Under the pieces are notes generated by a model. The model searched no databases. It saw only the letters and a program-made list of their open reading frames with translations, and was not told where the DNA came from. Positions 24,266 through 41,230 of a stretch of DNA of 64,000 nt are shown piece after piece. Each line of letters opens with the position of its first letter. The stretch's first letter is position 1. Source of the stretch: a virus; the IMG/VR virus record IMGVR_UViG_3300045988_183636; one strand, given 5' to 3'. The position numbers were made by a program, and so were the translations under genes.

Positions 24266-24499
24266 GTTGCACCACGCAAGGGTGCAGGGGTGAAATATTA
24301 TACTGAATCGTCGCTGCCTGCATAGATATAGTTGCATCCCTTATGGGATGTATGGGTTGAAATTCAATAGAAACAGATGCATTCGGAGGTGTTACAAGTT
24401 GCACCCCCGCAAGGGGTGCATGGGTTGAAAATAAGAAATGGTAGGAAGGAATTCAGATATGAACATTAGTTGCATCCCGCAAGGGTGCAGGGGTGAAGT
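24266..24499 (+). CRISPR. CRISPR mini-array 1 (type I-C-like repeats, 4 divergent repeats, 3 spacers)
   Basis: GTTGCACCACGCAAGGGTGCAGGGGTGAAAT / GTTGCATCCCTTATGGGATGTATGGGTTGAAAT / GTTGCACCCCCGCAAGGGGTGCATGGGTTGAAAAT / GTTGCATCCCGCAAGGGTGCAGGGGTGAAGT; spacer 2 is shared with array 4. Confidence 0.7.
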
Positions 24500-24658
24500 A
24501 AAAGGATGTTGCCAGATATGTCAACCAAACTCGACTATTGAATAAATAACCGAGCATGATTCCTTCGGAACTGCTGAATCATGTAGTCTGACTGGTGAAG
24601 CGATGGTATACATATTTGAACAAATTAAACAAAAATACAGAATCAGAGGGAAAATAAT

Positions 24659-25306
24659 ATGTCAAAAACAAAAGGACTATCAAAGAAGAAAAAATTACTA
24701 AAAACGCTCATACATAAATACCTTCCATTGCAGGTACTACTTACTGTCTTTTTGTATGCAGTAATTGTATTTATTAACATTCCAATTAATAAATGGCTTA
24801 CTCTCAACTGTCAGAAATGGTCAAGTGGGGAATATCATTTTTATGATGCATTTTTTATTCTTCCATTTGCTGAACTGTTAATTTTTGCCATTATGTCTGC
24901 CGTTATTTGCGCTGTTTATTATTTTGTCAGTGGAATAATCGCATATAGGAATTACTGTTACATTCCACTTACAGAAGATGAAATCAAGAAAAAAGGATTT
25001 AAAAATGCAGATGAGTATTTTGCTTATGTGTGCAACATGTGTTCTTATGGTTTTAAAAATAATAAAGACTACATTCTTGTTGGTGATGAAGACCTCCAAA
25101 AAATGTTAACTACCTGTCTGCAGGTATTTCCTGATAATGGGACAATTTTTGGAATAAACCGCCATATGGTACGAAATATCATATGGGATCCTGATTTTCT
25201 TTCCGCACTTGCACTAGCCAGTGACCAAAGGGCGGAAATCATCAATGGACGTGTTGTATTGTCTGGCACCACAAAAGATGGTGACAGAAAAGAATATAAG
25301 ATATAA
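24659..25306 (+). CDS. 2-TM membrane protein, array-adjacent paralog family member 1
   Basis: MSKTKG.SKKK..LK...; shares ~45% identity along its full length with the 46072 gene and its N-terminal domain with the 25581 gene. Confidence 0.65.
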   Translation: MSKTKGLSKKKKLLKTLIHKYLPLQVLLTVFLYAVIVFINIPINKWLTLNCQKWSSGEYHFYDAFFILPFAELLIFAIMSAVICAVYYFVSGIIAYRNYCYIPLTEDEIKKKGFKNADEYFAYVCNMCSYGFKNNKDYILVGDEDLQKMLTTCLQVFPDNGTIFGINRHMVRNIIWDPDFLSALALASDQRAEIINGRVVLSGTTKDGDRKEYKI

Positions 25307-25322
25307 AGCAAGGAGATATAAT

Positions 25323-25541
25323 ATGTCAAAGAAAGCATCAGAAACACCGGAGGTGCCATCATATATCCCTCCGGCAAGTGAAAAGGAAAAGATTATAGAA
25401 AAGATCCGAAAAAAAGGAATTGAATGCAAACCGGATGGTACCGGGATTCCAATATTCTACACAAATGACCCGAAAGTAATGGATATGATCCGAAAAGAGA
25501 TCAATGAACGATTTTCGTTCGGGTTTCATATTCGTCCATAG
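25323..25541 (+). CDS. hypothetical small protein
   Basis: RBS AAGGAGAT before ATG 25323. Confidence 0.45.
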   Translation: MSKKASETPEVPSYIPPASEKEKIIEKIRKKGIECKPDGTGIPIFYTNDPKVMDMIRKEINERFSFGFHIRP

Positions 25542-25580
25542 GGAAAATAATAGAAAATAAGATTATAGGAGAAATAGTAC

Positions 25581-25913
25581 ATGTCAAAGAAAAAAATATC
25601 AAAAAAGAAAAATGTATTAAAGGTGTTATGGAATGAGTGTATAACATTCAAGGTGTTAATTTTTATCATAGCATATGTAGTGCTTGCGTTTATTAATATG
25701 CCATTTGAAAAATGGCTCTCACTTTATTTCGAATGGGAAAAATTAAAGGATTATCAAGAAGTATTCATGGAGGAGATAACATTATTAGTAATTCTCCCTC
25801 TCATGGAGATAGCTGCTGTTGCATTAATTTGTTTTATTATCTATGAGTTTTTTTGCTCTGTCAGTAAGATGATTGCATCTGATGAAGTAATTTCGATTGA
25901 AAAGGAAGAATGA
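25581..25913 (+). CDS. membrane protein, N-terminal-domain-only paralog of 24659/46072
   Basis: MSKKKISKKKNVLKVLWNEC.. aligns with the 46072 N-terminus. Confidence 0.55.
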   Translation: MSKKKISKKKNVLKVLWNECITFKVLIFIIAYVVLAFINMPFEKWLSLYFEWEKLKDYQEVFMEEITLLVILPLMEIAAVALICFIIYEFFCSVSKMIASDEVISIEKEE

Positions 25914-25980
25914 TACGAAAAGAACACCGCTATTAGGTCAGAAATAAATAGCAGAGGTTTGCAGATATAAGGAGGATCGG

Positions 25981-26151
25981 AATGTGTACTTTAAAGGATA
26001 AGTTAGTGGAATGTGGAGCATGTGTAGCAGCTGTAATTCTTGTGTTGGCAGTTTGTTATGGACTAAGTTGGATTGTAACATGTGGAGTTATTAAGCTGAT
26101 TACGATGTGTTTTGGATTAACATTTAAGTGGTCCATTGCAACCGGTAAATG
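25981..26151 (+). CDS. possible small membrane protein (56 aa)
   Basis: RBS TAAGGAGGA 6 nt before ATG; two hydrophobic segments; below the ORF-track cutoff. Confidence 0.35.
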
Positions 26152-26408
26152 AGCTATGACAATATTAAATTTTATCATTGAGTGTTGGAAGAATTCTTGC
26201 GACGAAAAAATCAAAAGGAATTATGTTGAATCCCTTGCTAAAGTGGCGGTTTCAGTGGCCATCATTATTATATCTGTTTTATTATATTTGCACATATGAA
26301 ATGTATAACGGAAATGTATATTTTGGGGGAGGAGGGGTAAGTACAAACATAATTTTTAAAAAAGTAGCGCAAAGAAAGAATTCACTAATGCAGAAGGGGC
26401 GTAACAAT

Positions 26409-28231
26409 ATGATCAACGGAGAATTAGTTGTAGATAATTTTGCGGGCGGAGGAGGAGCTTCCACAGGAATTGAACTTGCTACCGGATACAGCGTAGACAT
26501 AGCTATTAACCATGATCCGGAGGCCATTAAGATGCATAAAGTAAATCATCCCAATACAAAACACTATTGTGAAAACGTATGGGAGGTTGATCCAGTAAAA
26601 GCCTGCAAGGGGCACCCTGTCGGTCTTGCATGGTTTTCTCCGGACTGTAAGCATTTTTCCAAGGCCAAGGGGGGAAACCGGTAGAAAAGAATATTCGCGG
26701 TCTTGCGTGGGTTGTGCTTAAATGGGCGGCACTTGTCAGACCAAGAGTTATCATGCTTGAAAATGTGGAAGAATTTCAGACATGGGGACCATGTATTCCT
26801 ATCAGGGATAAAGATACAGGACGCGTTATTGTCAGCATGGTAGGAAGGCATGACAGAGAGAAGAACGAGCCGCGTACGAGGGTTGCAGATCCAGGAGAAG
26901 TTGTTCCTGTGGATCGCCAGATATTCCAACCAGATCCTAAAAGGAGCGGCCAGACATACAAAAAATGGAGAAAGCAGCTAGAAGCACTTGGATATGAGAT
27001 AGATACAAAGGAACTTGTAGCAGCTGATTATGGCGCACCTACTATGAGAAAGAGATTCTTTATGATTGCACGGTGTGATGGCAAGCCGATTGTCTGGCCG
27101 GAACCAACACATGGACCGGCAGATAGTGAAGAGGTAAAGGCAGGACTGTTAAAACCATACGTTGGAGCGTATACGCAATTGGATTTTTCTCTTCCTTGCC
27201 CGAGCATATTTGATACGGCAGAGGAAATCAAAAGGAAATATGGAATACGCGCTGTACGTCCATTGGCGCAGAAAACAATGGATCGAATCGCAAGAGGATT
27301 GAAAAAGTTCGTATTAGACAATCCGGAGCCGTTTATTATCCAATGCAATCATGGTGGAGAGCGTAGACAAAACGACATCAAAGAGCCTTTACCTACTATT
27401 ACTGGAAAACACGGATATGGAATTGTGGAACCTAAGATTGTTCCATATATGGGAACCAATACAACAAATCATCCAGGTGGAAATTGTAAAAATCCTATAC
27501 ATACAATTACAACAGGAAATCAACAGTGCCTTATCAGCCCAACGCTGATTCAGTATCATTCCGAAACATCGAAGGATGAAGTCAGAGGCCAATCGATTGA
27601 AGATCCGATAATGACCGTGGATGGTTCGAACCGATACGGATTGGTCACGTCGTTTCTACATAAATATTATGACGGAGGATACACTGGAGCTGGTGATACT
27701 GTCGAAAATCCGTTACCGACAGTAACATCCTGGGATCATAACAGTCTGTGTGCAGTTAATCTGATCCAAATGAATAATCATTGCGATGGAAGGGACGTGA
27801 AGGAGCCAATTCCAACAATCACAGCAGGCGATGGTCATTTCGGAGAGGTTAGAGCATTTCTGATCAAGTATTATGGTCAGGGAACTGGACAGGATGTTAA
27901 GGAACCTTTGGATACGGTTACATCAAGAGATCGATTTGGTTTAGTTACAATTAATGGTACCGACTATAAGATCGTGGATATCGGATTGAGGATGCTTGAA
28001 CCGAAAGAACTGTATGGATGCCAGGGATTTCCAGATGATTACATCATAGACCGCGATTACACAGGGAAAAAATACCCAAGAAGCGAGCAGGTACGCAGGT
28101 GTGGAAATGCTGTATGTCCTCCGATTCCGGCTGCTCTTGTAAAAGCAAATCTTCCGGAATTATGCGTAGCGAAACGCACTGGGAATATGAAAATTCGTGA
28201 GGAACAGACCGGGCAGCTTAGATTTGCATAA
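26409..28231 (+). pseudogene. multispecific C5-cytosine DNA methyltransferase with tandem target-recognition domains, interrupted by a frameshift at a G6 homopolymer (26670..26675)
   Basis: motif I DNFAGGGGAS and motif IV SPDCKHFS in ORF 26178..26684; RGLAW..RP..IMLENVEEF (motif VI) plus repeated P.PT.T TRD-like modules and motif X GNAV in ORF 26714..28231; the two frames join if the run is G7. Confidence 0.75.
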
Positions 28232-28371
28232 ATTGCATAAATTGCTATACTGTAAAAAGAAAATGTAAATATTGCTATCATTTGTATTTTTATAGACGTT
28301 CATATGCGCAATACATAATTCTTTTTGAAAAAGTAATGAGATGGTAACAAAGAAAAAAGGAGAGTGAAAGA

Positions 28372-28830
28372 GTGGTTCAAAATTTTGAGGCGTATGGAGT
28401 TGAAATTACGGTAGAGAAACCAATTGCTGTATGCGTAGCGTGCTCATTTTGTGTAAACATAGATATGGCGGTGGATAAAAATGTTACTCATTTTTGTGAA
28501 ATTCTTGGGAAAGAAATGACTAATCAAGAAGCTGATAATAAACCTTGTTCAGAATGTCCAATTACATATAGAAATAAAGAGTCTTTAAATGAAAAGAAGG
28601 AGAAAGGAAAAATGTTGATAATAAGTATTGTAATTTTATTTATGGGACTTGTATACATGGGGGCTATTGGAGTTGAAACTTTTTCACGCTCATTAATTTT
28701 TATTATGATTTCCATCGTTGAGCTTTTTCTTATCGTGTATGCGGACCGAAAAGATTTTGAAGAAAAAAGAAAACGTGATCATTCCATAACTCAATATGAT
28801 CCGGATGAAGAAACAATAGAAGAGGATTAA
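28372..28830 (+). CDS. hypothetical membrane protein with a Cys-rich N-terminus
   Basis: 152-aa ORF with RBS AAGGAGAG. Confidence 0.5.
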   Translation: MVQNFEAYGVEITVEKPIAVCVACSFCVNIDMAVDKNVTHFCEILGKEMTNQEADNKPCSECPITYRNKESLNEKKEKGKMLIISIVILFMGLVYMGAIGVETFSRSLIFIMISIVELFLIVYADRKDFEEKRKRDHSITQYDPDEETIEED

Positions 28831-29018
28831 AAAATGGGGGATGAAATTTGCTATTTGCATGCTTCAGAATAGGAAATTAAAAGGATAATGGAGAATAGAA
28901 ATGGGAGTTTTTCAAACAAAAGTATACAAGGAATGTTATCCATTTTCGAGAGAGGTTTTGTACAATACAGAAAAACGGAAATTAATAATTCATTTACTAG
29001 AAAGGTGGTGATATAATT

Positions 29019-29288
29019 ATGCATGAAATAGAAAACAAAATTTTAGAAGAATTGCTTGTTGCACCTTTGTGCATTGTTCAAGACCGGTATGGTGGATGTT
29101 ATTCTGGAGCAGAATATCTGGCATTTAATATGGAACCGTATTTAGTAACAGAATTGGACGTAGATGCAGGTGATATGAGCTGTCGCGATTTTTGGGAATA
29201 CGAAGCGAAAGAGTATATTATTGGAAAAGGAAATACTCCGTTAGAAGCACTATGCGATTTACAAATTAAATTAACTTCAAAGAAGTGA
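29019..29288 (+). CDS. hypothetical small protein
   Basis: RBS AAAGGTGGTG. Confidence 0.45.
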   Translation: MHEIENKILEELLVAPLCIVQDRYGGCYSGAEYLAFNMEPYLVTELDVDAGDMSCRDFWEYEAKEYIIGKGNTPLEALCDLQIKLTSKK

Positions 29289-29482
29289 TTGTGGCAGAAA
29301 GAACGGGTATAAAATGAAAAAGATTCCATGGCTTGTCTTATCTATCAATAACAGCAGAGTACCACTTCCATATGATGCTCCGCATGGGAGTGGTAGTTCA
29401 TAAAAAAGCTTCCATCAATGCTTTTGAAAAGCTATAATTATAACGTGTTATGGTCAAGCTTATAATAAGGAGATGAATAAAT

Positions 29483-29698
29483 ATGTACGGTATATCAAGG
29501 AAAATCCATGAGAGATTCATAAATAGAAAGTCAAAGAAACACGATGAAAAATATACAGTCCCATTTCCTACGGACATTCCAAACCCAAATATCGTGGTTT
29601 TCGGTACTCATGGGAGTGGTAAATGTCGGATGCCTCTTCGCGTTAATGCTCAAATAAAAGAACTGACTACATATGATGGACTGACAGAAAGGAGATAA
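29483..29698 (+). CDS. hypothetical small protein
   Basis: RBS TAAGGAGATG. Confidence 0.45.
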   Translation: MYGISRKIHERFINRKSKKHDEKYTVPFPTDIPNPNIVVFGTHGSGKCRMPLRVNAQIKELTTYDGLTERR

Positions 29699-29700
29699 AT

Positions 29701-30045
29701 ATGGGAACTATTAGAAACAGATTAACGATTGTGAATGATTACAATTTTGATAGAATTACCAACACAAGACAAAATGCGGTTGAATATTTTGGAAAAATCA
29801 TGCGAGATGAATTTGACTTTCCGGATTATGATGTGAACACACAGATGATAAGTCCTATTTTGCCAAGTGTAGTAAACGGCATATACACCTTTGTTATTAT
29901 GGGAGACTGCTCAAAAGACGGATGGGAATTATCTAACGATTTTAAAAAGTACAGAGACGAGTGGATTCGGAAAAATAAGGGTCTAAATATATTGGTTGCA
30001 GACTTTGGAGAGGGAGATGCAGAAGCATATATAAAAGAGTATTAA
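29701..30045 (+). CDS. hypothetical protein
   Basis: start codon abuts the preceding stop; RBS AGGAGAT. Confidence 0.45.
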   Translation: MGTIRNRLTIVNDYNFDRITNTRQNAVEYFGKIMRDEFDFPDYDVNTQMISPILPSVVNGIYTFVIMGDCSKDGWELSNDFKKYRDEWIRKNKGLNILVADFGEGDAEAYIKEY

Positions 30046-30258
30046 TGCCCGTTTACAGTCTATAAAAGACATATTGTATCCAGAATTAAGCAAACAAGCC
30101 GTTTCTTCTCGCCTGTAGAAGGAAGGTTGAACTGGATGAAGATGTGACAGTAGACAACTGGAAGGCTCGTATAGATATTGATGAATTAGAAGCTACATAT
30201 CGGGTCGCAGATTTATATACCGGTTCAATCGAAGCGTGATAGTTAATGTGTAAAGAAA

Positions 30259-30287
30259 GAGTCTTGGAATAAGGCTCTTTTTTTTAT
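30259..30287 (+). terminator. rho-independent terminator
   Basis: agagtcttggaataaggctctttttttt. Confidence 0.6.
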
Positions 30288-30321
30288 TTCAGAAAAATTT
30301 TCAAGAAATTTCTGATTTACT

Positions 30322-30350
30322 TTGACGATTTTTCAAAAGGCGCAATATGT
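30322..30350 (+). promoter_or_regulatory. class-1 promoter
   Basis: ttgacgatttttcaaaaggcgcaatatgt. Confidence 0.6.
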
Positions 30351-30391
30351 GTAATGAAGACGAAAATAAGACGATTTTGGAGGGAGAAAAA

Positions 30392-30721
30392 ATGAAAATT
30401 TACTTTGAGGATGGAAAACTTGTCAATATTAAGCAATTACCGATTGCGCCGGATTATGTGATTGATGCTTCTGATGGAGTAACTGCCTGCATGGATATGC
30501 TGGATCGAATTTACTCGACTAATCGAGATGCAGTTGTATATACAAATTCAATTATTGCATTCAGTAACCGGTATGCATGGAATGAAGAGAAGAAAATTTC
30601 GGATGTTTATATCAGAGATGGAGAGGGTATGGAATTTACCAATATTGCGCTTCTGACAAATAGACAACTTCGGGAGGGGCATAATCTCGCGAAGTTGTAT
30701 CTTGGCGGTGAGTTCCGGTAG
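30392..30721 (+). CDS. hypothetical protein
   Basis: start moved to MKIYFEDG after RBS GGAGGGAG. Confidence 0.5.
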   Translation: MKIYFEDGKLVNIKQLPIAPDYVIDASDGVTACMDMLDRIYSTNRDAVVYTNSIIAFSNRYAWNEEKKISDVYIRDGEGMEFTNIALLTNRQLREGHNLAKLYLGGEFR

Positions 30722-31115
30722 GAAAGAAAGGGAAAAATCATGGACAAAAGTGGAGTAATTAACGGATAGACTTACGAGGAAACAAACCAGACTGCGAAAA
30801 CTGCATGATTGTGGGAAAAAATATGTACAGATAGGATGTCCTACGACAGCTTATGGGATTTGTGTAGGCATACAAAAAGGAAATTGATGAATACTATGCG
30901 GTCGGAGTCCCAGAAGAGCGCCTGGAAAATGCAGAAAAGCAGAGAAAGGAAGAAAAACTTGAGCAAGAATCTAATTTGCATATGAGGGTATAGCAGATTC
31001 AAGATCGGTTGTATGTATTATTTTTGAAAGGGGTGATGCCTATTGAGAGTTAATTTTAAAGAGAGTACATAAATAGCAGTTTAAAAAATCATAAAGAATG
31101 TGAGGGAAAAAATAT

Positions 31116-33108: not shown

Positions 33109-33139
33109 TTGACGATTTTTCAAAAGGCGCAATATGTAT
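33109..33139 (+). promoter_or_regulatory. class-1 promoter
   Basis: ttgacgatttttcaaaaggcgcaatatgtat. Confidence 0.6.
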
Positions 33140-33142
33140 AGT

Positions 33143-33283
33143 GTAAAGGTCATAAACCGAGCTGCCAGGGTTACCGGCTGGCAGAAAATCCTTTCGAAAA
33201 ATGTTTACGTTCCGGGAAATCCCCGGAAAGGATAGTGGGTACGCAGCGCAAGTTATTCCGGGTTCGACTCCCGGATATCCTTT
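33143..33283 (+). ncRNA. conserved structured 5' leader, copy B (tRNA-like acceptor/T-arm minihelix at its 3' end)
   Basis: same ~95 nt core as A and C; AAGGATA-(hairpin)-CCGGGTTCGACTCCCGG-ATATCCTT forms an acceptor-stem + T-arm (TTCGACT loop) module. Confidence 0.5.
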
Positions 33284-34456: not shown

Positions 34457-34518
34457 GAAAGAAGCCGGGGAATCCCGACTTTTCTGCTGCATTGTGTGTA
34501 TATTTTAACGCCGCCTGC

Positions 34519-34591
34519 GGGATTCGAACCCGCGGATAAAGAGTTCAAAGCTCCCTGCGTTAACCTTTTCGCCAAGGCGGAGCACACCCGG
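34519..34591 (-). tRNA. tRNA-Gln (anticodon UUG), no encoded CCA
   Basis: manual fold: 3-bp D-stem, anticodon loop CUUUGAA, T-arm GCGGG-TTCGAAT-CCCGC; 1:72 mismatch. Confidence 0.6.
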
Positions 34592-34592
34592 A

Positions 34593-34660
34593 AGGACTCG
34601 AACCCTCGTTACCGGTTTTGGAGACCAGTTTCTGTCCATCAGACAGGTGCATAACAGGCG
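34593..34660 (-). tRNA. tRNA-Trp (CCA), compact 68-nt form with a reduced D-arm
   Basis: anticodon arm CUGGU-CUCCAAA-ACCGG matches Trp; T-arm GAGGG-TTCGAGT-CCTTC; D region is only a 4-bp stem with a 5-nt loop; acceptor stem has two G.U pairs. Confidence 0.45.
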
Positions 34661-34664
34661 ATAA

Positions 34665-34735
34665 TGGAATCGAACCATTGTTTTCTGAGTCAGAATCAGA
34701 TGTCTTACCATTGAACGAATCGCCCAGTATCCCCA
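34665..34735 (-). tRNA. tRNA-Gln (CUG)
   Basis: anticodon loop UUCUGAC; 3-bp D-stem; T-arm AATGG-TTCGATT-CCATT. Confidence 0.6.
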
Positions 34736-34737
34736 AA

Positions 34738-34812
34738 GGGACTCGAACCCTTAACCGACAGATTAGAAATCTGTTGCTCTTTCCAATTGAGCTATGGGGA
34801 TATATAGCGCAG
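34738..34812 (-). tRNA. tRNA-Arg (UCU)
   Basis: D-arm GCTC..GAGC; anticodon loop UUUCUAA in stem ACAGA/UCUGU; T-arm AAGGG-TTCGAGT-CCCTT. Confidence 0.65.
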
Positions 34813-34818
34813 ACACCG

Positions 34819-34907
34819 GGGATCGAACCCGGACAGCGGGTGTGCCGCATGCCACATTAGCAGTGTGGAGGGGTACCATTTACCTTTATATGTCTGCATA
34901 AGAGGCA
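34819..34907 (-). tRNA. tRNA-Ser (GCU), long variable arm
   Basis: 89 nt; anticodon loop CUGCUAA in stem CCACA/UGUGG; T-arm CCGGG-TTCGATC-CCCGG. Confidence 0.55.
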
Positions 34908-34912
34908 TCGGA

Positions 34913-34984
34913 GGGGATCGAACCCTCGCCTTCCGGGTTGCAGCCGGACGCCTTCGCCGTTTGGCTACGATGCCATATAATTCT
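34913..34984 (-). tRNA. tRNA-Cys (GCA)
   Basis: anticodon loop CUGCAAC in stem UCCGG/CCGGA; T-arm GAGGG-TTCGATC-CCCTC. Confidence 0.6.
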
Positions 34985-35014
34985 TCCCGATAAGAGAAGA
35001 TGAGCGCTGGGGCA

Positions 35015-35098
35015 GGGAGTCGAACCCTGATATCCTTTCGGAATGACGGTTTTCAGGACCGTTGCTTTACCAGTTGAGCCACCACAGCAAAAATAAAA
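35015..35098 (-). tRNA. tRNA-Ser (UGA)-like, long variable arm, unusual C33
   Basis: 84 nt; anticodon loop CCUGAAA; variable stem UCC-gaaa-GGA; T-arm CAGGG-TTCGACT-CCCTG. Confidence 0.5.
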
Positions 35099-35333
35099 GC
35101 ATACACCTCTCAATCGAAAGATGTATGCTTTGCAATTCCAGGTATTTCCAATATTCTCCCGGAAATTTCCCTACAATGACCACATTTCTTTCAATTTGAG
35201 ACAATATTTATTTGCACGACAACTACGCCAGATACATGACTGCGACTGACTCATACTTGCCTGTGAATATTGTCTCATTACTGCTGTAATCATTGATTTT
35301 CCCTTCCTTTCCTTGGTTTTCTTGAATATTTAG

Positions 35334-35407
35334 TGTGTCTGGTGGGACTTGAACCCGACGACCCCACGATTAAAAGTCGCGTGCTCTGCCAACTGAGCTA
35401 CAGACAC
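35334..35407 (-). tRNA. tRNA-Lys (UUU)
   Basis: canonical fold: acceptor GTGTCTG/CAGACAC, D-arm AGCTCAGTTGGCAGAGC, anticodon loop CUUUUAA. Confidence 0.7.
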
Positions 35408-35412
35408 ATAAG

Positions 35413-35484
35413 CGGATCAGGAGGGAATCGAACCCTCATCTTCCGGTAGACAGCCGGATGTACTAGCCGCTATACTACAGATCC
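35413..35484 (-). tRNA. tRNA-Asp (GUC)
   Basis: anticodon loop CUGUCUA in stem UCCGG/CCGGA; T-arm GAGGG-TTCGATT-CCCTC. Confidence 0.6.
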
Positions 35485-35488
35485 ATAA

Positions 35489-35561
35489 AGCTCCCGTCCG
35501 GCTTCGAACCGGAAACCTTCTGATTACAAGTCAGATGCACTACCAGTTGTGCTACAGGAGC
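35489..35561 (-). tRNA. tRNA-Thr (UGU)
   Basis: D-arm GCACAACTGGTAGTGC; anticodon loop CUUGUAA; T-arm TCCGG-TTCGAAG-CCGGA. Confidence 0.65.
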
Positions 35562-35567
35562 AGGAAC

Positions 35568-35638
35568 ACTTCCGACGGGTGCTGCCCCGCTATCTCCGCC
35601 GTGACAGGGCGGTGACTCTGTTGTTTGTCCTCGGAAGT
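35568..35638 (-). ncRNA. non-canonical tRNA-like element (8-bp acceptor-like stem, anticodon-like arm CCGCC-CUGUCAC-GGCGG, 4-bp T-like hairpin, no D-arm)
   Basis: ACTTCCGA...TCGGAAGT closing stem; sits inside the tRNA array at tRNA spacing. Confidence 0.35.
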
Positions 35639-35645
35639 AAATAAG

Positions 35646-35727
35646 TGCGCCGGGGAGGACTCGAACCTCCGGTGTTTCTTTGTGGCTGATTTACAGTCAG
35701 CTGCTGTCGCCTCTGAGCCACCGACGC
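35646..35727 (-). tRNA. tRNA-Tyr (GUA), long variable arm
   Basis: 82 nt; anticodon loop CUGUAAA in stem GCUGA/UCAGC; T-arm GGAGG-TTCGAGT-CCTCC. Confidence 0.6.
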
Positions 35728-35732
35728 ATAAG

Positions 35733-35804
35733 CTGGTCCGGAGGGTCTCGAACCCTCAACGCCCCGGTTAACAGCCGGGTGCTCTACCATTGAGCTACGG
35801 ATCA
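35733..35804 (-). tRNA. tRNA-Asn (GUU)
   Basis: D-arm AGCTCAATGGTAGAGC; anticodon loop CUGUUAA; T-arm GAGGG-TTCGAGA-CCCTC. Confidence 0.65.
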
Positions 35805-35805
35805 G

Positions 35806-35877
35806 AGCATGTGACGGGTCTCGAACCCGCCCGTCCTGCTTGGAAGGCAGGTGTGCCGCCAACAACACTTCACATGC
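35806..35877 (-). tRNA. tRNA-Gly (UCC)
   Basis: anticodon loop CUUCCAA in stem CCUGC/GCAGG; T-arm with TTCGAGA loop. Confidence 0.6.
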
Positions 35878-35942
35878 ATGCGGATAAAAGAAGTGCCTGT
35901 TTTCTCTTATCCATTCAGTTTTTTTACCGCATCGCTGCGGAG

Positions 35943-36014
35943 TGGACAGGAGTGGTAACGATCCACCCTGTAAGGATTTTCAGTCCTTCGCTAATCCATC
36001 TCAGCTACCTGTCC
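35943..36014 (-). tRNA. putative tRNA-Phe (GAA) with a non-canonical T-loop (ATCGTTA)
   Basis: perfect 7-bp acceptor GGACAGG/CCTGTCC, U8, anticodon stem AAGGA/UCCUU with loop CUGAAAA; lacks the TTCGA T-loop signature. Confidence 0.4.
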
Positions 36015-36460
36015 ATGGCTTTTTCTGCAATAAAAAAGCCGCATCAAGAAATTTCCTCTTCTCTCTGCGGTCATCTGCGTTTTGCAATATTTCGGTTTTA
36101 AGTGCCTGGTTTAAAATCGAAATCGACCGCGGGAAGGTGTATCATAATAGTTCTGTCCCCATGTTTTCCCGGATTTTGAGCATGAGAAACTAAACATATT
36201 GCTGAAATCGCCGTATGTTCTACAATCATTATTAAAATTTTTACTACTCATCATCTTTAACATGGTTTTCTTTTCCTTTCATTTTAATTAATGCTGGATA
36301 AACAAAAAGCCCGTCACTTAACTCAAAGCTACACATCCAAATAGCTCTGAGTTAAAAGACAGGCACTTCTTTTATCTCATGCACCTATCATATCATACTG
36401 ATCGTGAAGTGTCAACAGGAAATTTAAAAAAGGTTATTTTTGGTTATTTTGGTTATTTTT

Positions 36461-36500
36461 CAAAATAAAACAAAATAAAACAAAATAAAACAAATAAAAA
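36461..36500. repeat. short tandem repeat (AAAACAAAAT)n x4
   Basis: caaaataaaacaaaataaaacaaaataaaacaaataaaaa. Confidence 0.6.
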
Positions 36501-36530
36501 TCTCCGCCAAAATAGACGGAGATTTGAAAA
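36500..36530. terminator. terminator hairpin downstream of the minus-strand gene
   Basis: aatctccgccaaaatagacggagattt. Confidence 0.5.
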
Positions 36531-37151
36531 TTAACAGGTTAATTCGTAGTCGTACAGATCGAGCGGCGTTTTGTTTCCGCTGGACCACTCAAACTCTTCG
36601 TTGTCCCAAATGCTGCGGGCGTTGTTCAGATTGATCTCATCCGTCAATACCTTTTCTTCGATATTAATGAACCGTTCCAAAGATTCTTTGAAGCGGTTGA
36701 TGACTTCCTCGGGATTCTTTGAATGCCAGCTGTATTCGTCGAAAAACCTTCCACTGGCGGTAATTGTTAATTTCTCGCCGTTATCCGACAATCCAGATAG
36801 TTCAAGTGTAACCATTCCCTCGGAAATATCGCTATAATATTCGCCTGGTTTGTTGGTATCGTTGATTTTGTTCCCTAGTTCTTCCGCTTTTTCCATCATG
36901 CCCCAAATTTCCCCTGGAAGCGTAAGGTAGTCTTCTGGATAGTATTCCACGGTTGGGTTGATTTCCTCTTGCAGGAGATCTTCAACAAAATTGTCTCCTT
37001 TAAAAATAGCAAAAGAGTCGACACCTCTTGCGGAAACCTCAACTTTCCCGCATTTGCATGGGAATATTTTAAAAAGTCTTCTATCTCGAGTGTCATAAGC
37101 TACTGAAAAAATGCCGCATTCTTTGCATTTAAAATTTCTTTGTGTTTTCAT
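36531..37151 (-). CDS. hypothetical protein with an N-terminal zinc-ribbon
   Basis: start moved to MKTQRNFKCKECG (RBS GAAGGGAG); minus-strand class-2 motif at 37180..37200. Confidence 0.55.
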   Translation of the reverse strand: MKTQRNFKCKECGIFSVAYDTRDRRLFKIFPCKCGKVEVSARGVDSFAIFKGDNFVEDLLQEEINPTVEYYPEDYLTLPGEIWGMMEKAEELGNKINDTNKPGEYYSDISEGMVTLELSGLSDNGEKLTITASGRFFDEYSWHSKNPEEVINRFKESLERFINIEEKVLTDEINLNNARSIWDNEEFEWSSGNKTPLDLYDYELTC

Positions 37152-37179
37152 GATTTTTCTCCCTTCATCAATGGTTTTA

Positions 37180-37200
37180 TTTACACTTTTAATATGAAAT
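37180..37200 (-). promoter_or_regulatory. class-2 promoter-like motif (minus strand)
   Basis: the reverse complement reads atttcatattaaaagtgtaaa. Confidence 0.45.
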
Positions 37201-37234
37201 ATTAAAAATATTTCAAAAAATTTCCCGGAAATTT

Positions 37235-37266
37235 TTGACGAAATTTCAAAAGGCGCAATATATGTA
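37235..37266 (+). promoter_or_regulatory. class-1 promoter
   Basis: ttgacgaaatttcaaaaggcgcaatatatgta. Confidence 0.6.
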
Positions 37267-37289
37267 ATGAAAGGAGGAGGAAATACAAA

Positions 37290-37622
37290 TTGAAATGTTT
37301 GACATGCAAGAAACACTGGTCGCAGGGAGGCCGCTGTTCAGAGAACGTGAGAAACTGCCTGCATTATGAGGAAGAACCAAGAGGAAAAATGGTCCGCACA
37401 GAACTGTCTTTTCGTATGGATGCAGAGGCGGAAACTCCGGTGGTCAGATTTGGAGAGAAAATACTGGTTTCCGATGGTTCAAAAGCGGTCGAGATGACTG
37501 TGGTCAAGATCAACTGGGTTAATCTTCGGGATATGCTCTGCAATGTATCCGCGGATTATCATGAGAATGAGATGCCGCGATTTGAGAAAGAAAAGAAGTT
37601 CAAAGCATTACATGGAAAATAG
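37290..37622 (+). CDS. hypothetical protein
   Basis: RBS AAAGGAGGAGG; 110 aa; stop abuts CRISPR mini-array 2. Confidence 0.5.
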   Translation: MKCLTCKKHWSQGGRCSENVRNCLHYEEEPRGKMVRTELSFRMDAEAETPVVRFGEKILVSDGSKAVEMTVVKINWVNLRDMLCNVSADYHENEMPRFEKEKKFKALHGK

Positions 37623-37728
37623 TTGCATTCCAGTGGAATGCATGGGGTGAAAGAAATAGGCAAATCGCATGACAATTTCTGAAATTAAATTGTTGCGCTC
37701 CCGTGGAGGGGGGCGTATGGATTGAAAT
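37622..37728 (+). CRISPR. CRISPR mini-array 2 (2 divergent I-C-like repeats, 1 spacer)
   Basis: GTTGCATTCCAGTGGAATGCATGGGGTGAAAG ... GTTGCGCTCCCGTGGAGGGGGGCGTATGGATTGAAAT. Confidence 0.55.
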
Positions 37729-37781
37729 GTGGAATCCTGTGATTGGCACATACTTGGGTGTAGTGCAGAAAAAGTGACCCA

Positions 37782-38057
37782 TTACAGATCACTTTCGATG
37801 AAAATTTGCTTTGCGATTTTTCCGATCACCCAATTTGGAATGTCGCTGCGGCATCCAGAATGGATTTCTCCGTTTTCAACAAAAAAGAATGCGGATTCTT
37901 CCGTTTTCATGCGGTCTAAAGCTTGCGCAGAAAAATATAAGGAATGGTGGAAGTCGCATCTTTGTGCCTCCTCATATGTATGGACTTCCTCTATTTTCCC
38001 ATCGATCAGGCTGACACAGCCGGACCAGAACTCTTTTCCTTCGAATATTGCTGCCAT
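37782..38057 (-). CDS. hypothetical small protein
   Basis: RBS GAAAGGAG; minus-strand class-2 motif at 38083..38105. Confidence 0.5.
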   Translation of the reverse strand: MAAIFEGKEFWSGCVSLIDGKIEEVHTYEEAQRCDFHHSLYFSAQALDRMKTEESAFFFVENGEIHSGCRSDIPNWVIGKIAKQIFIESDL

Positions 38058-38082
38058 GTTTTGCTCCTTTCAAAATACTTTC

Positions 38083-38105
38083 GTTTACACTTTCAATATG
38101 AAATG
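38083..38105 (-). promoter_or_regulatory. class-2 promoter-like motif (minus strand)
   Basis: the reverse complement reads catttcatattgaaagtgtaaac. Confidence 0.45.
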
Positions 38106-38134
38106 AAAATATTTCAAAACATTTCCAAAAACTT

Positions 38135-38167
38135 TTGACGATTTTTTAAATGGCGCAATATGTATCA
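38135..38167 (+). promoter_or_regulatory. class-1 promoter
   Basis: ttgacgattttttaaatggcgcaatatgtatca. Confidence 0.6.
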
Positions 38168-38168
38168 T

Positions 38169-38316
38169 GTAAAGGTCATAAACCGAGCTGCCAGGGTTAT
38201 CGGCTGGCAGAAATCTTTTCGATATTTGTTTACACTCCGGGGAAACCCGGAAGGGGTAGTGAGGACGCAGCGTGTGCTGTTTCCGGGTTCGATTCCCGGG
38301 TATCCCTTTTGACTGC
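38169..38316 (+). ncRNA. conserved structured 5' leader, copy C (tRNA-like minihelix GGGTA..CCGGGTTCGATTCCCGG..TATCCC), part of a ~420 nt 5' UTR
   Basis: near-identical to copies A and B over ~95 nt, then a hairpin plus acceptor/T-arm module. Confidence 0.5.
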
Positions 38317-38585
38317 CACATACGGTCTTCTCAAAATTCAGCCGTCTGCGGCCTGTGGAACTTTCCACTGGACCAAAATAACGATAACCGCCAGAATAAC
38401 AGCAGCGTGCGTTGGCGTGAGAACTATCGGCGCACAGGGATTACTCCTTTCATATTTATCTATCAAACCTTTCCGTACATCGTATGGAAAGGTTATGGGA
38501 CAGCAGGTGCATAGACATGAACTATTCCGGGATCGTTTCCCGGATGTTCCATTTTTAAAACATTAAAACAAATCATAGGAGGGAA

Positions 38586-39314
38586 TTGATGATGGAGAAA
38601 GAAGTAGTATATGTTGCAGAACTGGATTCCGATGTTGATGATGTCGTTGCGGCACATTACTTATTTAACGAGGGTGTGTTAAAGTGTGTAGTATGCGATC
38701 CATATCCAAGAACACCGGAGGGGTTGGCACGAAAGGGAAAGCTGGAAGCGCTTGGCATCGATGTGGTTAAGAAAATGCCACCGGTTGCAAAATATGTGTT
38801 TGTTGGCGGCGCTCTTACGGCTGTTGCTGGCTATATCCGGATGCACCATGTCGACTGGCTGGTAATGAACGGAGGCTTTGTTGGAGCAAATATTGCGACC
38901 TTTGAACTGGATAAGTTCAAGGGGAAGAACACTGTCCGTACCTTCAATTTCAACTGCGATGTTGTGGCTGCAGATACGGTTTTGAAAACTGATGAGAAGC
39001 ATATTTCTCATATTGTTCTTGTCGGAAAAAACGTCTGCCATGACGTCCGAAATACGAAAAATGGTCTCTGGAGTGGCGAGAAATACAAGAAATTGTTCGA
39101 TGAGTACCGGGTTAAGGATGAGAAGCGTCAACACGACTTGCTTGCCTGCCATGAGGGGCTTGCATTTCTGCGGGGAACCAATGCGATCTGTGAGTATGAG
39201 ATGGTAAGACCATACAACACAGGCTTGAATGGCAAGCTGACGCAGTGGGGTAGCACAAAAACCATGGAAACACCATATCGCGAAGTGCTTGCTGCTGTTG
39301 GCTACCAGAATTAA
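38586..39314 (+). CDS. hypothetical protein (possible Rossmann-like fold)
   Basis: RBS TAGGAGGGAATTG; 242 aa; stop abuts CRISPR mini-array 3. Confidence 0.55.
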   Translation: MMMEKEVVYVAELDSDVDDVVAAHYLFNEGVLKCVVCDPYPRTPEGLARKGKLEALGIDVVKKMPPVAKYVFVGGALTAVAGYIRMHHVDWLVMNGGFVGANIATFELDKFKGKNTVRTFNFNCDVVAADTVLKTDEKHISHIVLVGKNVCHDVRNTKNGLWSGEKYKKLFDEYRVKDEKRQHDLLACHEGLAFLRGTNAICEYEMVRPYNTGLNGKLTQWGSTKTMETPYREVLAAVGYQN

Positions 39315-39316
39315 AA

Positions 39317-39420
39317 GCTGCATCATGTGCGGGGGTGTATGGATTGAAATGTCGGAGTATGGGTAAGAATCATATATATTCCTACGTTGTGCTCCTCCCG
39401 GTTGGTGCACGGGTTGAAAT
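39317..39420 (+). CRISPR. CRISPR mini-array 3 (2 divergent repeats, 1 spacer)
   Basis: GCTGCATCATGTGCGGGGGTGTATGGATTGAAAT ... GTTGTGCTCCTCCCGGTTGGTGCACGGGTTGAAAT. Confidence 0.5.
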
Positions 39421-39651
39421 ATAGTTCTAAAAATGGTTGGAAGACCTGTTTTTTGGTTACACCCATTGTCAGCTGTAAACCACAGTTAAGGCTTTCGGAT
39501 GCGGTTAAAGTTTAAAAAGGCAACACCGCCAGATGGCTGTTCCTTTCGCGCCCTGAGATCAAGAAATCATTATGGGGCGGGCACTTACCAAATGAACTTG
39601 AAAGAAAGATCTACGTGGAATCCATGATCCACAGGACAAAGGATAATCCCA

Positions 39652-40008
39652 TTGTCCTTTATGACTTTGATGACAGGTTTTACCAGTGCATGTACATGCT
39701 CCACTATGCGTGAAGATGGCACAGTCGCTGAAAGACGGTTCTTAAAACTCCCGGCAGAATACGACTCTCTGCAACATAAGATCGATCATATCAAACGTGC
39801 ACGGCACCATGGTTCCAGACGTGTTTCAAACCTCTGGGCATATGCAGACGACGTCAATAAAGACATTGTTGTAAAAACAGCCCAGTTTGTTACGGATACT
39901 GCCGTGCTGCATGTTAACAGCATGCAGTTGCGGTGTTATCACTGTGTCCTCAGTCAGCGAGTCCATACGGGAAAACAGGTATGGAAGCACGCGAATTTAG
40001 TCATGTGA
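39652..40008 (+). CDS. hypothetical protein
   Basis: 118-aa ORF without a clear RBS; low-complexity N-terminus. Confidence 0.25.
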   Translation: MSFMTLMTGFTSACTCSTMREDGTVAERRFLKLPAEYDSLQHKIDHIKRARHHGSRRVSNLWAYADDVNKDIVVKTAQFVTDTAVLHVNSMQLRCYHCVLSQRVHTGKQVWKHANLVM

Positions 40009-40118
40009 GACTTCACGGCCGGCCGCCGAAAGGACGTACACTACAAAAGCCTTTTGCACCTGACTTTTCTGTGGTATACTGAAAATATAAAAGATATTTC
40101 AAGGAGAAGGCAGAGAAA

Positions 40119-40991
40119 ATGAGAAAAAGTGTGAAAGATTTTGGAAATTTTGTAAGAAAAGACAATTACCCGGAGCTTCCAGAAGAATTGAAAGAATTTA
40201 ACTATTTTTTGAGTGATGGCGAGACGGGACATGTGATCATGGCTGTGCCTGAGCACACTTTGAATAAAGCAGAAGAAAATGTGGATGAACTGGATGATTA
40301 CGAATGTCCAGTTCCAGTGGCATATGTTCTTAAGAATGGCTATCGGCTGTATAAGAACCATGTAATATGCCAGGTTCCGTACGATGAGAAACTGGGGGTG
40401 CGTATTCCGGAAGAATATTACGAACCGTCGATTATTTCTACAGATGCCGGGGAAGCAGAGAATCCGGTGTCCGGAGAGTTCCCTTATGAGAAAAGGAAAT
40501 GCTATCCAGAATTTGCAAACCATGCAGAAGCTGTAGTTGCGGATATCGTTAAGGATTACGTGCAGATCCGCGTATTTTTTAAAAATCCTACAGAAAACGA
40601 GATTGCACAGTTTTCTCCGGATGCCAGACTGAAAATTCGTTTTACGGAGATGGATGGAACCTGTCTGTTTACCGTTAAAGCTGGTGATTTGTCATGGATG
40701 GATGCACCATACCATGCAAAACTTGCAAAAGATTTGTCTGGATTCGACTTTACAGGTGAAAGTGAGATTCCGTTATATCTCCTCCTGATCGACTCATCGA
40801 ATGGTGAGGTCAAAGCGGTTCGAAATGTCCAGTTGTCAGAAGAGTTTTCCAGCAAATTGAGAAATCTGGTGGATCGTCAGGTCAACTCTGATTTTGATAA
40901 AAAGAAATATGCGGATATATTGTCCAACATTTATCTCCTTTTTTCATCGGATGAGCTGGCGGATGCCAGCACCATTAAGTGTCAGTGGTAG
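40119..40991 (+). CDS. hypothetical protein
   Basis: RBS CAAGGAGAAGG; 290 aa; stop abuts CRISPR mini-array 4. Confidence 0.55.
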   Translation: MRKSVKDFGNFVRKDNYPELPEELKEFNYFLSDGETGHVIMAVPEHTLNKAEENVDELDDYECPVPVAYVLKNGYRLYKNHVICQVPYDEKLGVRIPEEYYEPSIISTDAGEAENPVSGEFPYEKRKCYPEFANHAEAVVADIVKDYVQIRVFFKNPTENEIAQFSPDARLKIRFTEMDGTCLFTVKAGDLSWMDAPYHAKLAKDLSGFDFTGESEIPLYLLLIDSSNGEVKAVRNVQLSEEFSSKLRNLVDRQVNSDFDKKKYADILSNIYLLFSSDELADASTIKCQW

Positions 40992-41011
40992 GTAAGAAGA
41001 TATACTTTACT

Positions 41012-41230
41012 GTTGCGCCCCATTGGGTGCATGGGTTGAAATCTTTATGACCTTCTGAAAAGTGAGGGCATCTTAGTTGCACCCCCGCAAGGGATGTATG
41101 GGTTGAAATTCAATAGAAACAGATGCATTCGAAGGCGTTACAAGTTGCACCCCGCGAGGGGTGTATGGGTTGAAATTGCAGAAAGCTCAGGATTGGAAGG
41201 TTGCATCCTATGGGATGCATGGATTGAAAC
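41012..41230 (+). CRISPR. CRISPR mini-array 4 (4 divergent repeats, 3 spacers; spacer 2 is almost identical to array-1 spacer 2)
   Basis: GTTGCGCCCCATTGGGTGCATGGGTTGAAAT / GTTGCACCCCCGCAAGGGATGTATGGGTTGAAAT / GTTGCACCCCGCGAGGGGTGTATGGGTTGAAAT / GTTGCATCCTATGGGATGCATGGATTGAAAC. Confidence 0.65.

Follow-up and report, generated by a model that had tools for sequence, protein, structure and literature searches.

The type I-C locus and its dispersed repeats

The stretch of DNA considered here, called the window throughout, comprises 64,000 nucleotides (64 kb) of the IMG/VR virus record IMGVR_UViG_3300045988_183636 and belongs to an element of the gut that is presumptively a jumbo-phage-like virus. 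It carries a type I-C system of short palindromic repeats that are clustered and regularly interspaced (CRISPR) with an operon of the three genes cas5c, cas8c and cas7, a main CRISPR array downstream of this operon, and four mini-arrays (A1 to A4) dispersed among unrelated genes upstream of it. The mini-arrays, which are the subject of this analysis, are probably working CRISPR RNA (crRNA) genes. The features of the system are as follows.

24266-24499, plus strand: mini-array A1; repeats at 24266-24296, 24331-24363, 24398-24431 and 24469-24499; spacers of 34, 34 and 37 nt
37622-37728, plus strand: mini-array A2; repeats at 37622-37653 and 37692-37728; spacer of 38 nt
39317-39420, plus strand: mini-array A3; repeats at 39317-39350 and 39386-39420; spacer of 35 nt
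41012-41230, plus strand: mini-array A4; repeats at 41012-41042, 41076-41109, 41144-41176 and 41200-41230; spacers of 33, 34 and 23 nt
41110-41143, plus strand: A4 spacer 2, the spacer with an identified protospacer
41676-41707, plus strand: degenerate solitary repeat abutting the cas5c ribosome-binding site; handle ATGGGTAATAAG
41716-42390, plus strand: cas5c; Pfam Cas_Cas5d 2.5e-38; TIGR01876 8.6e-52; E 2e-65 to D. vulgaris Cas5c (8DEX/7KHA)
42387-44126, plus strand: cas8c/csd1; Pfam 4e-164; TIGR01863
44128-45039, plus strand: cas7/csd2; Pfam 1e-107; TIGR02589; gene call of 303 aa
45290-46002, plus strand: main array; 11 repeats; spacers of 32-36 nt; first three repeats identical, the others diverging

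An unfiltered search of the two strands of the window with a covariance model of the repeats themselves recovered 23 type I-C repeats (E 1.7e-9 to 3.8e-5), all on the plus strand, 12 of which form the four mini-arrays (4, 2, 2 and 4) and 11 the main array. One weaker match on the same strand, at 41676-41704 (E 0.005), is the degenerate solitary repeat in front of cas5c, and the remaining window gave no further match better than E 1.6 on either strand. The array coordinates and spacer lengths proposed in an initial annotation of this DNA were reproduced. Besides one unit of 23 nt, the spacers of the mini-arrays measure 34, 34, 37, 38, 35, 33 and 34 nt, within the type I-C range, and unique sequences of the length expected of a type I-C array (about 33-37 nt) separate the repeats. 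A search of the window with Rfam models returned tRNAs alone at gathering score and nothing relevant up to E 1.

The products of the three cas genes all score well beyond the curated cut-offs of Pfam and NCBIfam, and Cas5c, the start of which may lie at ATG 41731, resembles the solved pre-crRNA endonuclease of D. vulgaris. The arrays are accompanied by the cognate Cas5c, Cas8c and Cas7, in agreement with the initial annotation, which had taken the mini-arrays for genuine type I-C arrays of an element encoding its own Cas proteins. Genes for Cas3, Cas1, Cas2 and Cas4 were found neither beside this operon nor among those open reading frames of the 64 kb that were scanned with Pfam and NCBIfam. 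Type I-C variants with a helicase in place of Cas3 are among those reported from huge phages in the account of PMC7162821. A 767-aa helicase (21788-24091) was considered as a Cas3 substitute and rejected, being RadD/ResIII-like with no HD or Cas3 signature; from the end of its gene to the A1 promoter the distance is 70 nt, and 400 aa at the C-terminus of the protein are unassigned.

Diversity of the repeats and conservation of their hairpin

According to the initial annotation, no two of the 12 mini-array repeats are identical and all of them differ from the repeat of the main array. Indeed, 12 of 12 are distinct, with pairwise identities of 65-91% (mean 75%) and identities of 56-81% to the leader-proximal main repeat. 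Heterogeneity extends to the main array, identity being confined to its first three repeats. The repeats have the architecture of type I-C repeats, namely a length of about 32-37 nt, a 5′-proximal stem-loop and a 3′ ATTGAAA(Y) handle. The claim that the handle is kept is correct for most repeats, but in 3 of the 12, the first and last repeats of A1 and the first of A2 (A1r1, A1r4 and A2r1), it is degenerate. This element had also been described as the 3′ handle of the crRNA, which needs correction: in the mature crRNA the conserved ATGGrTTGAAAy would form the 5′ handle. The 11 nt of this handle, TGGATTGAAAT, are shared with a chromosomal I-C repeat of the Roseburia type, the only host-type repeat that was examined, and the stems of the two differ.

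Two further proposals of that annotation, that the differences within the hairpin are compensatory and that hairpin and handle are under selection, were addressed with an alignment of 80 repeats, representing 47 distinct sequences and taken from related strains as well as the window, with an 8-bp stem and with 500 shuffles. Among the 47 distinct repeats 92.4% of the stem cells pair, and changes on both sides were observed in six of the eight stem pairs (33 cells). None of the 500 shuffles reached the observed pairing or covariation, and all slid registers were far worse. Since the repeats are related to each other and the alignment was fitted to the model, this covariation is strong support for selection on hairpin and handle, not proof of it. 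Most repeats also fold individually into the expected hairpin; those of A3r1 and A4r2 are no better than shuffled sequence on folding.

A1 and A4 share a block, as had been noticed from the sequence: positions 24331-24431 and 41076-41176 align at about 90%, with 32 of 34 spacer positions identical. A1 spacer 2 is in other words a two-mismatch twin of A4 spacer 2.

A guide against a bacterial defence-type island

The core of the spacer shared by A1 and A4 was used as the query of a metagenome scan, which returned 24 loci consisting of 20 arrays and 4 protospacers. A4 spacer 2 matches the protospacers at 34 of 34 positions and A1 spacer 2 at 32 of 34, with a 5′-TTC flank (...gatTTC) in four metagenome contigs, and the same 34/34 protospacer lies on a 1.25-Mb bacterial contig (L043) and on a 26-kb contig; the TTC-flanked loci with 34/34 matches are L017, L018, L023, L035, L043 and L044. 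The copy of the shared spacer in a distantly related locus (L020) matches the protospacer at 36 of 36 nt. A 5′-TTC flank is the canonical protospacer adjacent motif (PAM) of type I-C systems. The target contigs have no other sequence in common with the window. The perfect match, the TTC PAM and the otherwise unrelated contigs together argue that A4 spacer 2 is a bona fide PAM-selected guide, and the presence of one such spacer suggests that the mini-arrays act as guides rather than being debris.

The protospacer is located about 500 nt into the gene of a 548/573-aa protein with an N-terminal helix-turn-helix (HTH) domain, which belongs to a rare family of 7 clusters. On the 1.25-Mb contig the gene resides in an island bounded by housekeeping genes and containing insertion sequence (IS) elements, a PDC-S02/YhcG nuclease (3e-127), ParE/Phd and a Mokosh-like MkoA/MkoC helicase (1e-51). 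The content of the island (L043 2900-19200; L017; L018) varies between contigs, and the targeted gene forms part of an uncharacterised HTH pair (357 aa + 548 aa), a candidate defence or satellite module. Neither matches to the shared spacer nor relatives of the target protein were found among the GTDB species representatives; one homologue of the target protein, 45% identical, is labelled Lachnospiraceae.

The initial annotation had proposed a BLAST search of the spacers. Of the eight distinct mini-array spacers, A4 spacer 2 has the target described above, and the other seven had no target in the databases searched. All spacers gave chance-level matches only to GenBank phages and plasmids. The cores of seven mini-array spacers had no match in IMG/VR, a weak negative since the window element is apparently absent from IMG/VR. 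No target was found for the spacers in the related-strain loci that were fetched, and the mini-array spacers matched nothing in the window itself beyond chance. An 11-nt match of A4 spacer 1 to a transcript leader shared by three sites was discarded, having no PAM and being at chance level (about 0.7 expected). In the reverse direction, the spacers of the host-type array at one Roseburia-type I-C locus showed no match to the window.

One spacer of the main array deserves mention beside these. Spacer 4 (45529-45563) matches the -35 region of the cas-operon promoter P1 (41324-41338) at 15 of 15 positions and 25 of 34 overall, with a TTT flank, and resembles the class-1 promoter described below as a whole. 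It is also found in a close strain (L012) and is absent from the arrays of L006, L007, L010 and L019. This spacer could be either a guide taken from the promoter of a related phage or a CreR-like self-regulator.

Gene context of the mini-arrays

The genes, promoters and terminator around the arrays are listed below.

24161-24187, plus strand: class-1 promoter before A1 (motif copy)
24659-25306, plus strand: gene of a 215-aa predicted membrane protein downstream of A1, 51% identical to the product of 46072-46719
37235-37261, plus strand: class-1 promoter for the 110-aa gene and A2 (motif copy)
37290-37622, plus strand: 110-aa gene, its TAG stop overlapping the first base of A2
38135-38161, plus strand: class-1 promoter of the unit consisting of the 242-aa gene, A3, a 118-aa gene, the 290-aa gene and A4 (motif copy)
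38586-39314, plus strand: 242-aa gene with weak nucleoside-hydrolase similarity, A3 following at a distance of 2 nt
40119-40991, plus strand: 290-aa gene, phrog_12389, function unknown, A4 following at a distance of 20 nt
41263-41303, plus strand: intrinsic terminator ending the A4 unit (18-bp stem and T-run)
41334-41622, plus strand: tandem pair of class-1 promoters ahead of the cas operon (motif copies at 41334 and 41596), separated by a leader
46072-46719, plus strand: paralogue of the 215-aa gene directly after the main array, 51% identical to the A1-linked copy

The mini-arrays had been described as lying in 3′ untranslated regions. This description fits A2, A3 and A4, which directly follow the stops at 37622, 39314 and 40991: their first repeats start at -1 (the G of the TAG being base 1 of the repeat), +2 and +20 nt, respectively. 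It does not fit A1, which lies between a promoter and the next gene. The motif copy at 24161, after which the initial annotation had placed A1, was confirmed as one of ten copies of a promoter-like 27-nt motif, TTGACGATTTTTyAAAwGGCGCAATAT (TTGACG-N-GGCGCAATAT). All the copies are on the plus strand, at 10719, 12134, 21547, 24161, 30322, 33109, 37235, 38135, 41334 and 41596; the motif is present in related strains and absent from the target contigs.

The stretches from the stop codons to the arrays contain no terminator-like site, and within the unit driven from 38135 none precedes 41263. On folding in context, the terminator after A4 forms together with three of the four A4 hairpins. The repeats themselves lack U-tracts and are therefore not terminators. 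Between the last repeat of the main array and the ATG of the downstream 215-aa gene, neither a promoter motif nor a terminator was detected. From this layout, co-transcription of the arrays with their flanking genes would be the simplest reading.

The 110-, 242- and 290-aa proteins encoded upstream of A2, A3 and A4 showed no match to Pfam, PHROG-annotated or PDB entries that mark anti-CRISPR (Acr) proteins. Homologues of the 110-aa gene exist in small phages, where no repeat follows them. The two 215-aa paralogues, each directly 3′ of an array, have no family match, and their hydrophobic N-terminal region may be membrane-spanning; a 230-aa gene after the main array of L007 was examined as a further homologue and proved not to be homologous. 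The predicted transcripts from three class-1 promoters start with a common leader, ATGTAAAGGTCATAAACCGAG (21575-21790, 33137-33240 and 38163-38585). Two of these regions contain hairpins resembling a tRNA T-arm, with TCCGGGTyCGATTCCCGG at 21696 and 38282 and the variant TCCGGGATCGTTTCCCGGA at 38526, for which there is no Rfam match. A GC-rich stretch of about 250 nt from the cas7 stop to the leader of the main array (45040-45290 in the window; 12651-12900 in L010; also in L006 and L007) is conserved across strains and could be a structured RNA or an extended leader.

Related strains and the origin of the units

Metagenome contigs from the human gut that are identical to the window encode exactly its Cas8c, and the 90% cluster of this protein has 366 members on contigs of up to 357 kb. 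The next nearest Cas8c proteins, about 50% identical, belong to chromosomal, non-phage type I-C systems of Roseburia/Lachnospiraceae. Among viruses, the region had no megablast match in GenBank phages, no relatives of Cas8c were found in IMG/VR, and tblastn in phages returned two fragments only (47% and 28% identity), the closer of which was scanned and contains no repeats. Syntenic loci were obtained from diverged strains, namely L006/L009 and L007/L008 (Cas8c 88% identical) and L010 (Cas8c 94%).

Comparison with related genomes had been recommended in the initial annotation, and wherever one of the diverged strains examined has the site, it shows repeat-like units at the corresponding gene end, as one, two or four units. 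In L006, L007 and L010 a single repeat stands at the end of the 110-aa gene in place of the repeat-spacer-repeat of the window, and the overlap of the TAG stop with the first repeat base is kept in all three while the hairpin covaries. The 289/290-aa gene is followed by four repeats in the window, two with the 23-nt spacer in L010 and one in L006 and L007, with the same terminator after each. The 23-nt spacer of A4 is retained in L010 with three changes, and the inner A4 units are absent there. The two-repeat array after the 240/242-aa gene recurs in L010, its A3 spacer differing by a 1-nt indel, and a single very degenerate repeat occurs at the stop of the 240-aa homologue in L007 and at that of a 177-aa gene in L006. 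The degenerate solitary repeat in front of cas5c, the hairpin of which is intact and folds both alone and in context, is likewise kept with hairpin covariation in L006, L010 and L020; its counterpart in L020 closes, as terminal repeat, an array that lies immediately upstream of cas5. The solitary repeat could be a feedback site for Cas5c.

All 20 array-bearing loci of the metagenome scan carry the same A1 or A4 spacers. Orthologous mini-array repeats are 91-100% identical (97-100% where L010 keeps the unit), and the mini-arrays have no leader and show no sign of new acquisition among close strains. The main arrays present a different picture: their leader-proximal repeats are identical within a strain and their spacers strain-specific, while the trailer units are divergent and common to strains. 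The close strain L012 has two extra spacers at the leader end, and L007 and L010 differ at that end and share trailer spacers. By these signs the main arrays appear to behave like active arrays.

The source of A1 can be traced. In L019, cas8-cas7 (83% nucleotide identity) is followed by an array ending in the A1 block r2-s2-r3-s3-r4 (93% identity; r, repeat; s, spacer) and then by the same 215-aa gene, and the corresponding block in the window lies 17 kb away, behind its own promoter. A1 is a relocated main-array trailer together with its downstream gene. L020, a distant relative (Cas5 about 53% and Cas7 about 60% identical), has a uniform array with a repeat 1 nt off that of A1r2, and this array contains the spacer shared by A1 and A4. 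The other mini-array repeats resemble trailer repeats of the main arrays of other lineages. Taken together, the comparison shows the mini-arrays to be old repeat-spacer units. In a 1.1-kb metagenome contig (L029) the last unit of A4 (the 23-nt spacer and r4) is joined to s1-r2-s2-r3, the first half of A1; the contig is either a natural recombinant of mini-arrays or an assembly artefact.

These relationships bear on how the repeats became diverse. The suggestion that modules have been copied is supported by the L019 trailer block and by the block common to A1 and A4. Among the alternatives raised in the initial annotation, capture from several sources fits best, with the A1 block being the L019 trailer and A1r2 being 1 nt from the L020 repeat. 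Units acquired at different times or in different lineages, each copying the leader-proximal repeat of the lineage concerned, and then shuffled would account for the repeat diversity. De-repeating to avoid recombination is not needed for it: indels between strains at repeat sites start and end inside repeats, so recombination still happens and de-repeating is superfluous as an explanation. Recombination between the repeats of old units would also explain why the number of units at one site varies between strains.

Proposed function and alternative explanations

The four mini-arrays are probably working leaderless crRNA genes of a type I-C system that lacks Cas3 and adaptation genes and is carried by a large gut phage-like element. 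By the strain comparison, each unit was first taken up at the leader end of an array next to cas genes, in this lineage or a related one, and was later moved or split by repeat-mediated recombination, with selection keeping only stem and handle. Because the mini-arrays have no leader and, except for A1, no promoter of their own, and adjoin promoter-driven genes, they are most simply thought to be transcribed within the mRNAs of these genes, A2, A3 and A4 behind genes with strong promoters of the element and A1 behind a promoter directly. Cas5c is predicted to cut at the 3′ base of each hairpin, as expected from the processing described for type I-C Cas5c (Nam 2012 and Garside 2012, as cited in PMC10651486), and the crRNAs with an 11-nt 5′ handle would join Cas5c-Cas8c-Cas7. 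The spacer shared as A4 spacer 2 and A1 spacer 2 would then guide this complex to the HTH-protein gene of the bacterial defence-type island. Binding by Cascade might silence the gene, there being no Cas3 in the window, or might recruit the Cas3 of the host, the two options proposed for such phage systems in the account of PMC7162821. The locus of the Roseburia-type host array with the identical handle does have cas3.

Several observations speak against the mini-arrays as working guides. A target was identified for only one of the eight distinct mini-array spacers, and this protospacer is in mid-gene on the coding strand. A mid-gene coding-strand protospacer is not the most effective place for silencing by Cascade (CRISPR interference, CRISPRi). 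No Cas3 was found in the 64 kb. The degenerate handles of A1r1, A1r4 and A2r1 and the poorly folding hairpins of A3r1 and A4r2 have to be counted here, as does the 23-nt spacer of A4, which is below the standard length of an I-C crRNA. Moreover, no virion genes were found in the window.

The repeats may, in a manner compatible with the guide function, be kept at gene boundaries as RNA punctuation because Cas5c cleavage shapes the neighbouring mRNAs. The initial annotation had voiced a related idea, with the mini-arrays serving in addition as signals for 3′-end processing or termination of mRNAs. Cleavage would give the upstream cistron a protective 3′ hairpin, would make the 5′ ends of the 215-aa genes (after A1 and the main array) and of the 118- and 290-aa genes (after A3), and would give Cas5c a means of feedback on its own operon through the degenerate repeat at the cas5c ribosome-binding site. 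This role is possible but somewhat unlikely. A repeat-like unit is present at all three gene-end sites in the diverged strains carrying the site, sometimes single and spacerless; the stop of the 110-aa gene stays overlapped with a covarying hairpin; the degenerate repeat in front of cas5 is conserved with covariation in three lineages and abuts the ribosome-binding site; and the arrays and the downstream 215-aa genes have no promoter or terminator between them. On the other hand, the repeats occur only around the cas locus and at A1 and are absent from dozens of other window genes, the 110-aa gene homologues of small phages manage without a repeat, and the same layout is equally expected from gene cassettes recombined into or beside an old array. 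A stronger version, in which Cas5c-dependent punctuation at stops, cistron fronts and the cas5c ribosome-binding site controls phage mRNAs, including that of the cas operon, and in which the guides are by-products through which a Cas3-less Cascade silences the gene of the host defence island, is unlikely.

Three further readings were considered. Were the units RNA anti-CRISPRs (Racrs), possibly in acr-racr operons, they would mimic host I-C repeats and soak up host Cas5c and Cas7, and the upstream genes would encode Acr or other anti-defence proteins. There is a precedent in a validated solitary I-C repeat 11 nt downstream of acrIC5, on one bicistronic RNA (PMC10651486), relatives of the window have single repeats directly after the same genes, and the handle is identical to that of the Roseburia-type repeat. 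Decoys of this kind are nevertheless quite improbable here: solitary units are found in L006, L007 and L010 and before cas5, but the mini-array loci of the window are 4 of 4 repeat-spacer-repeat with canonical spacers, one of them with a perfect PAM-flanked target; the decoys would poison the element's own Cascade too, the stems are unlike those of the one host-type repeat examined, and the upstream proteins lack similarity marking Acrs in Pfam, PHROG and PDB. Regulation of the CreR/CreA/Cracr type, in which short or degenerate units, especially the 23-nt unit of A4, would guide Cascade by a partial match to its own cas promoter or to a host cas or toxin promoter, is very unlikely. The layout is indeed that of such regulators, with degenerate repeats and a short spacer (A4r3-23 nt-A4r4) 100 nt upstream of the cas promoters, the usual position of a CreR gene, and this spacer is retained in L010. 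In or beside cas loci, mini-arrays whose distal repeats are degenerate occur commonly; their role is usually regulatory, and duplication of a terminal array unit is their presumed origin (bioRxiv 10.1101/2023.03.03.530964). Viral versions arranged as arrays exist, those of type I-C included (bioRxiv 10.1101/2024.10.29.618823), and a spacer of the main array, though not of a mini-array, matches the -35 region of a cas promoter at 15 of 15 positions. Yet no mini-array spacer or trailing sequence has a TTC-flanked, PAM-proximal match of at least 9 nt in the cas promoter region of the element. The best match at one Roseburia-type I-C locus, a TTC-flanked seed of 9 nt, is at chance level and lies within the coding region of cas8 and not in a promoter, and the one target identified is matched perfectly in mid-gene rather than partially at a promoter. 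For decoy roles and for promoter-regulating roles, no support was found. Finally, the units might be decaying relics, non-functional fragments of an old array split by gene insertions and kept by linkage, as their heterogeneity, some weak hairpins or degenerate handles, the lack of a leader and of new acquisitions, and the many spacers without a detected target would have it. Such decay is highly improbable given that the stem is kept by compensatory changes, that units persist at the same sites across lineages with Cas8c 12% different, and that the targeting spacer is intact in two copies and still matches its target at 34 of 34 positions.

Relation to known systems

As described in the account of PMC7162821 (Al-Shayeb et al. 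2020), huge phages carry type I-C variants without Cas1, Cas2 and Cas3, with compact arrays and some host-directed spacers. The present system resembles that description in being a cas5c-cas8c-cas7 operon without adaptation genes or Cas3 on a large tRNA-rich element, and in its compact arrays, degenerate old-end units and a spacer against a bacterial chromosomal gene. It departs from what is described there in having five guide loci among unrelated genes, near-unique repeats with compensated stems, and a repeat on the cas5c ribosome-binding site.

The leaderless units of one to three spacers with degenerate distal repeats are like the mini-arrays found by cas loci, including CreR/CreA (Shmakov et al. 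2023, bioRxiv 10.1101/2023.03.03.530964), and the origin by duplication of terminal units proposed in that study is directly visible here for A1. Those regulators act by partial matches to promoters of the same locus; the mini-array spacers of the window have no such match, and one of them has instead a full-length PAM-flanked match to a foreign gene. With one to three full-length spacers and no leader or adaptation genes, the arrays also correspond to the viral mini-CRISPR arrays of Medvedeva et al. 2019 (PMC6858448), the viral nature of the window element being presumptive. Unlike those viruses, which have no cas genes and target close viral relatives, the element has cas5c-cas8c-cas7 500 nt downstream of A4, its sole identified target is on a bacterial chromosomal contig, and no spacer matches related strains. 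The acrIC5-racrIC1 bicistron (Camara-Wilpert et al. 2023, PMC10651486) offers another parallel, with an I-C repeat a few nt after a gene and transcribed together with it, as would be the case here, and with single-repeat versions in relatives of the window. Racrs are solitary, spacerless and carried by elements without cas (PMC10651486), whereas here arrays with spacers lie beside the cognate cas genes.

The element also shares a feature with phage ICP1, namely phage-encoded spacers against a chromosomal island of the host, the island in the case of ICP1 being anti-phage. As Seed et al. are said to have found in 2013, ICP1's CRISPR-Cas system, which is of type I-F, targets the PLE island of Vibrio cholerae. 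The ICP1 system is complete, with Cas1, a Cas2-3 fusion and uniform arrays, and differs in this from the window, where Cas3 and adaptation genes are missing. Type I-C systems of phages without Cas3, compact arrays that are degenerate at the old end, mini-arrays or solitary repeats in the vicinity of cas loci, viral mini-arrays and repeats co-transcribed with an upstream gene have thus all been described already. What is new is the combination of five dispersed guide loci among unrelated genes, the near-complete individuality of repeats with compensated stems, traceable shuffling of units between lineages, a degenerate repeat on the cas5c ribosome-binding site and a conserved guide against a gene of a bacterial defence island.

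Other features of the element

The window contains 14 tRNAs, a CCA-adding enzyme, a NAD ligase, a methyltransferase and a TnpB-like transposase. In the absence of virion genes, the phage label rests on the tRNAs, the CCA-adding enzyme, the ligase, PHROG hits and contigs of up to 357 kb. The tRNA genes comprise a cluster of 13 at 34508-36014 on the minus strand (nearly all protein genes lie on the other strand) and a single tRNA-Met gene at 52911-52985 on the plus strand. The gene of the TnpB/IS605-type transposase is at 8732-9994, and a second copy at about 63080-64000 runs off the end of the window; the two have a common 36-mer at 8823 and 63170. An 878-aa open reading frame on the minus strand (phrog_35892) contains five diverged 54-nt units at 15798-16265, the spacing of which (69 or 138 nt) indicates a 23-aa repeat in the protein. 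The terminator at 41263-41303 is conserved in L006, L007 and L010.

Biological significance

If the mini-arrays are working crRNA genes, a phage without adaptation genes keeps and shuffles its stock of guides as single recombining units tied to ordinary genes. The repeats would drift freely while hairpin and handle survive, so that the 47 distinct, working-looking repeats would amount to a natural mutational map of what Cas5c needs. The guide present in two copies, and also in a distant relative, makes the HTH cassette a candidate for an anti-phage system or a satellite, and the Cascade without Cas3 is nominated as a natural silencing tool. Should the placement at gene boundaries prove functional as well, it would be a natural counterpart of the engineered CRISPR endoribonuclease sites that insulate cistrons.

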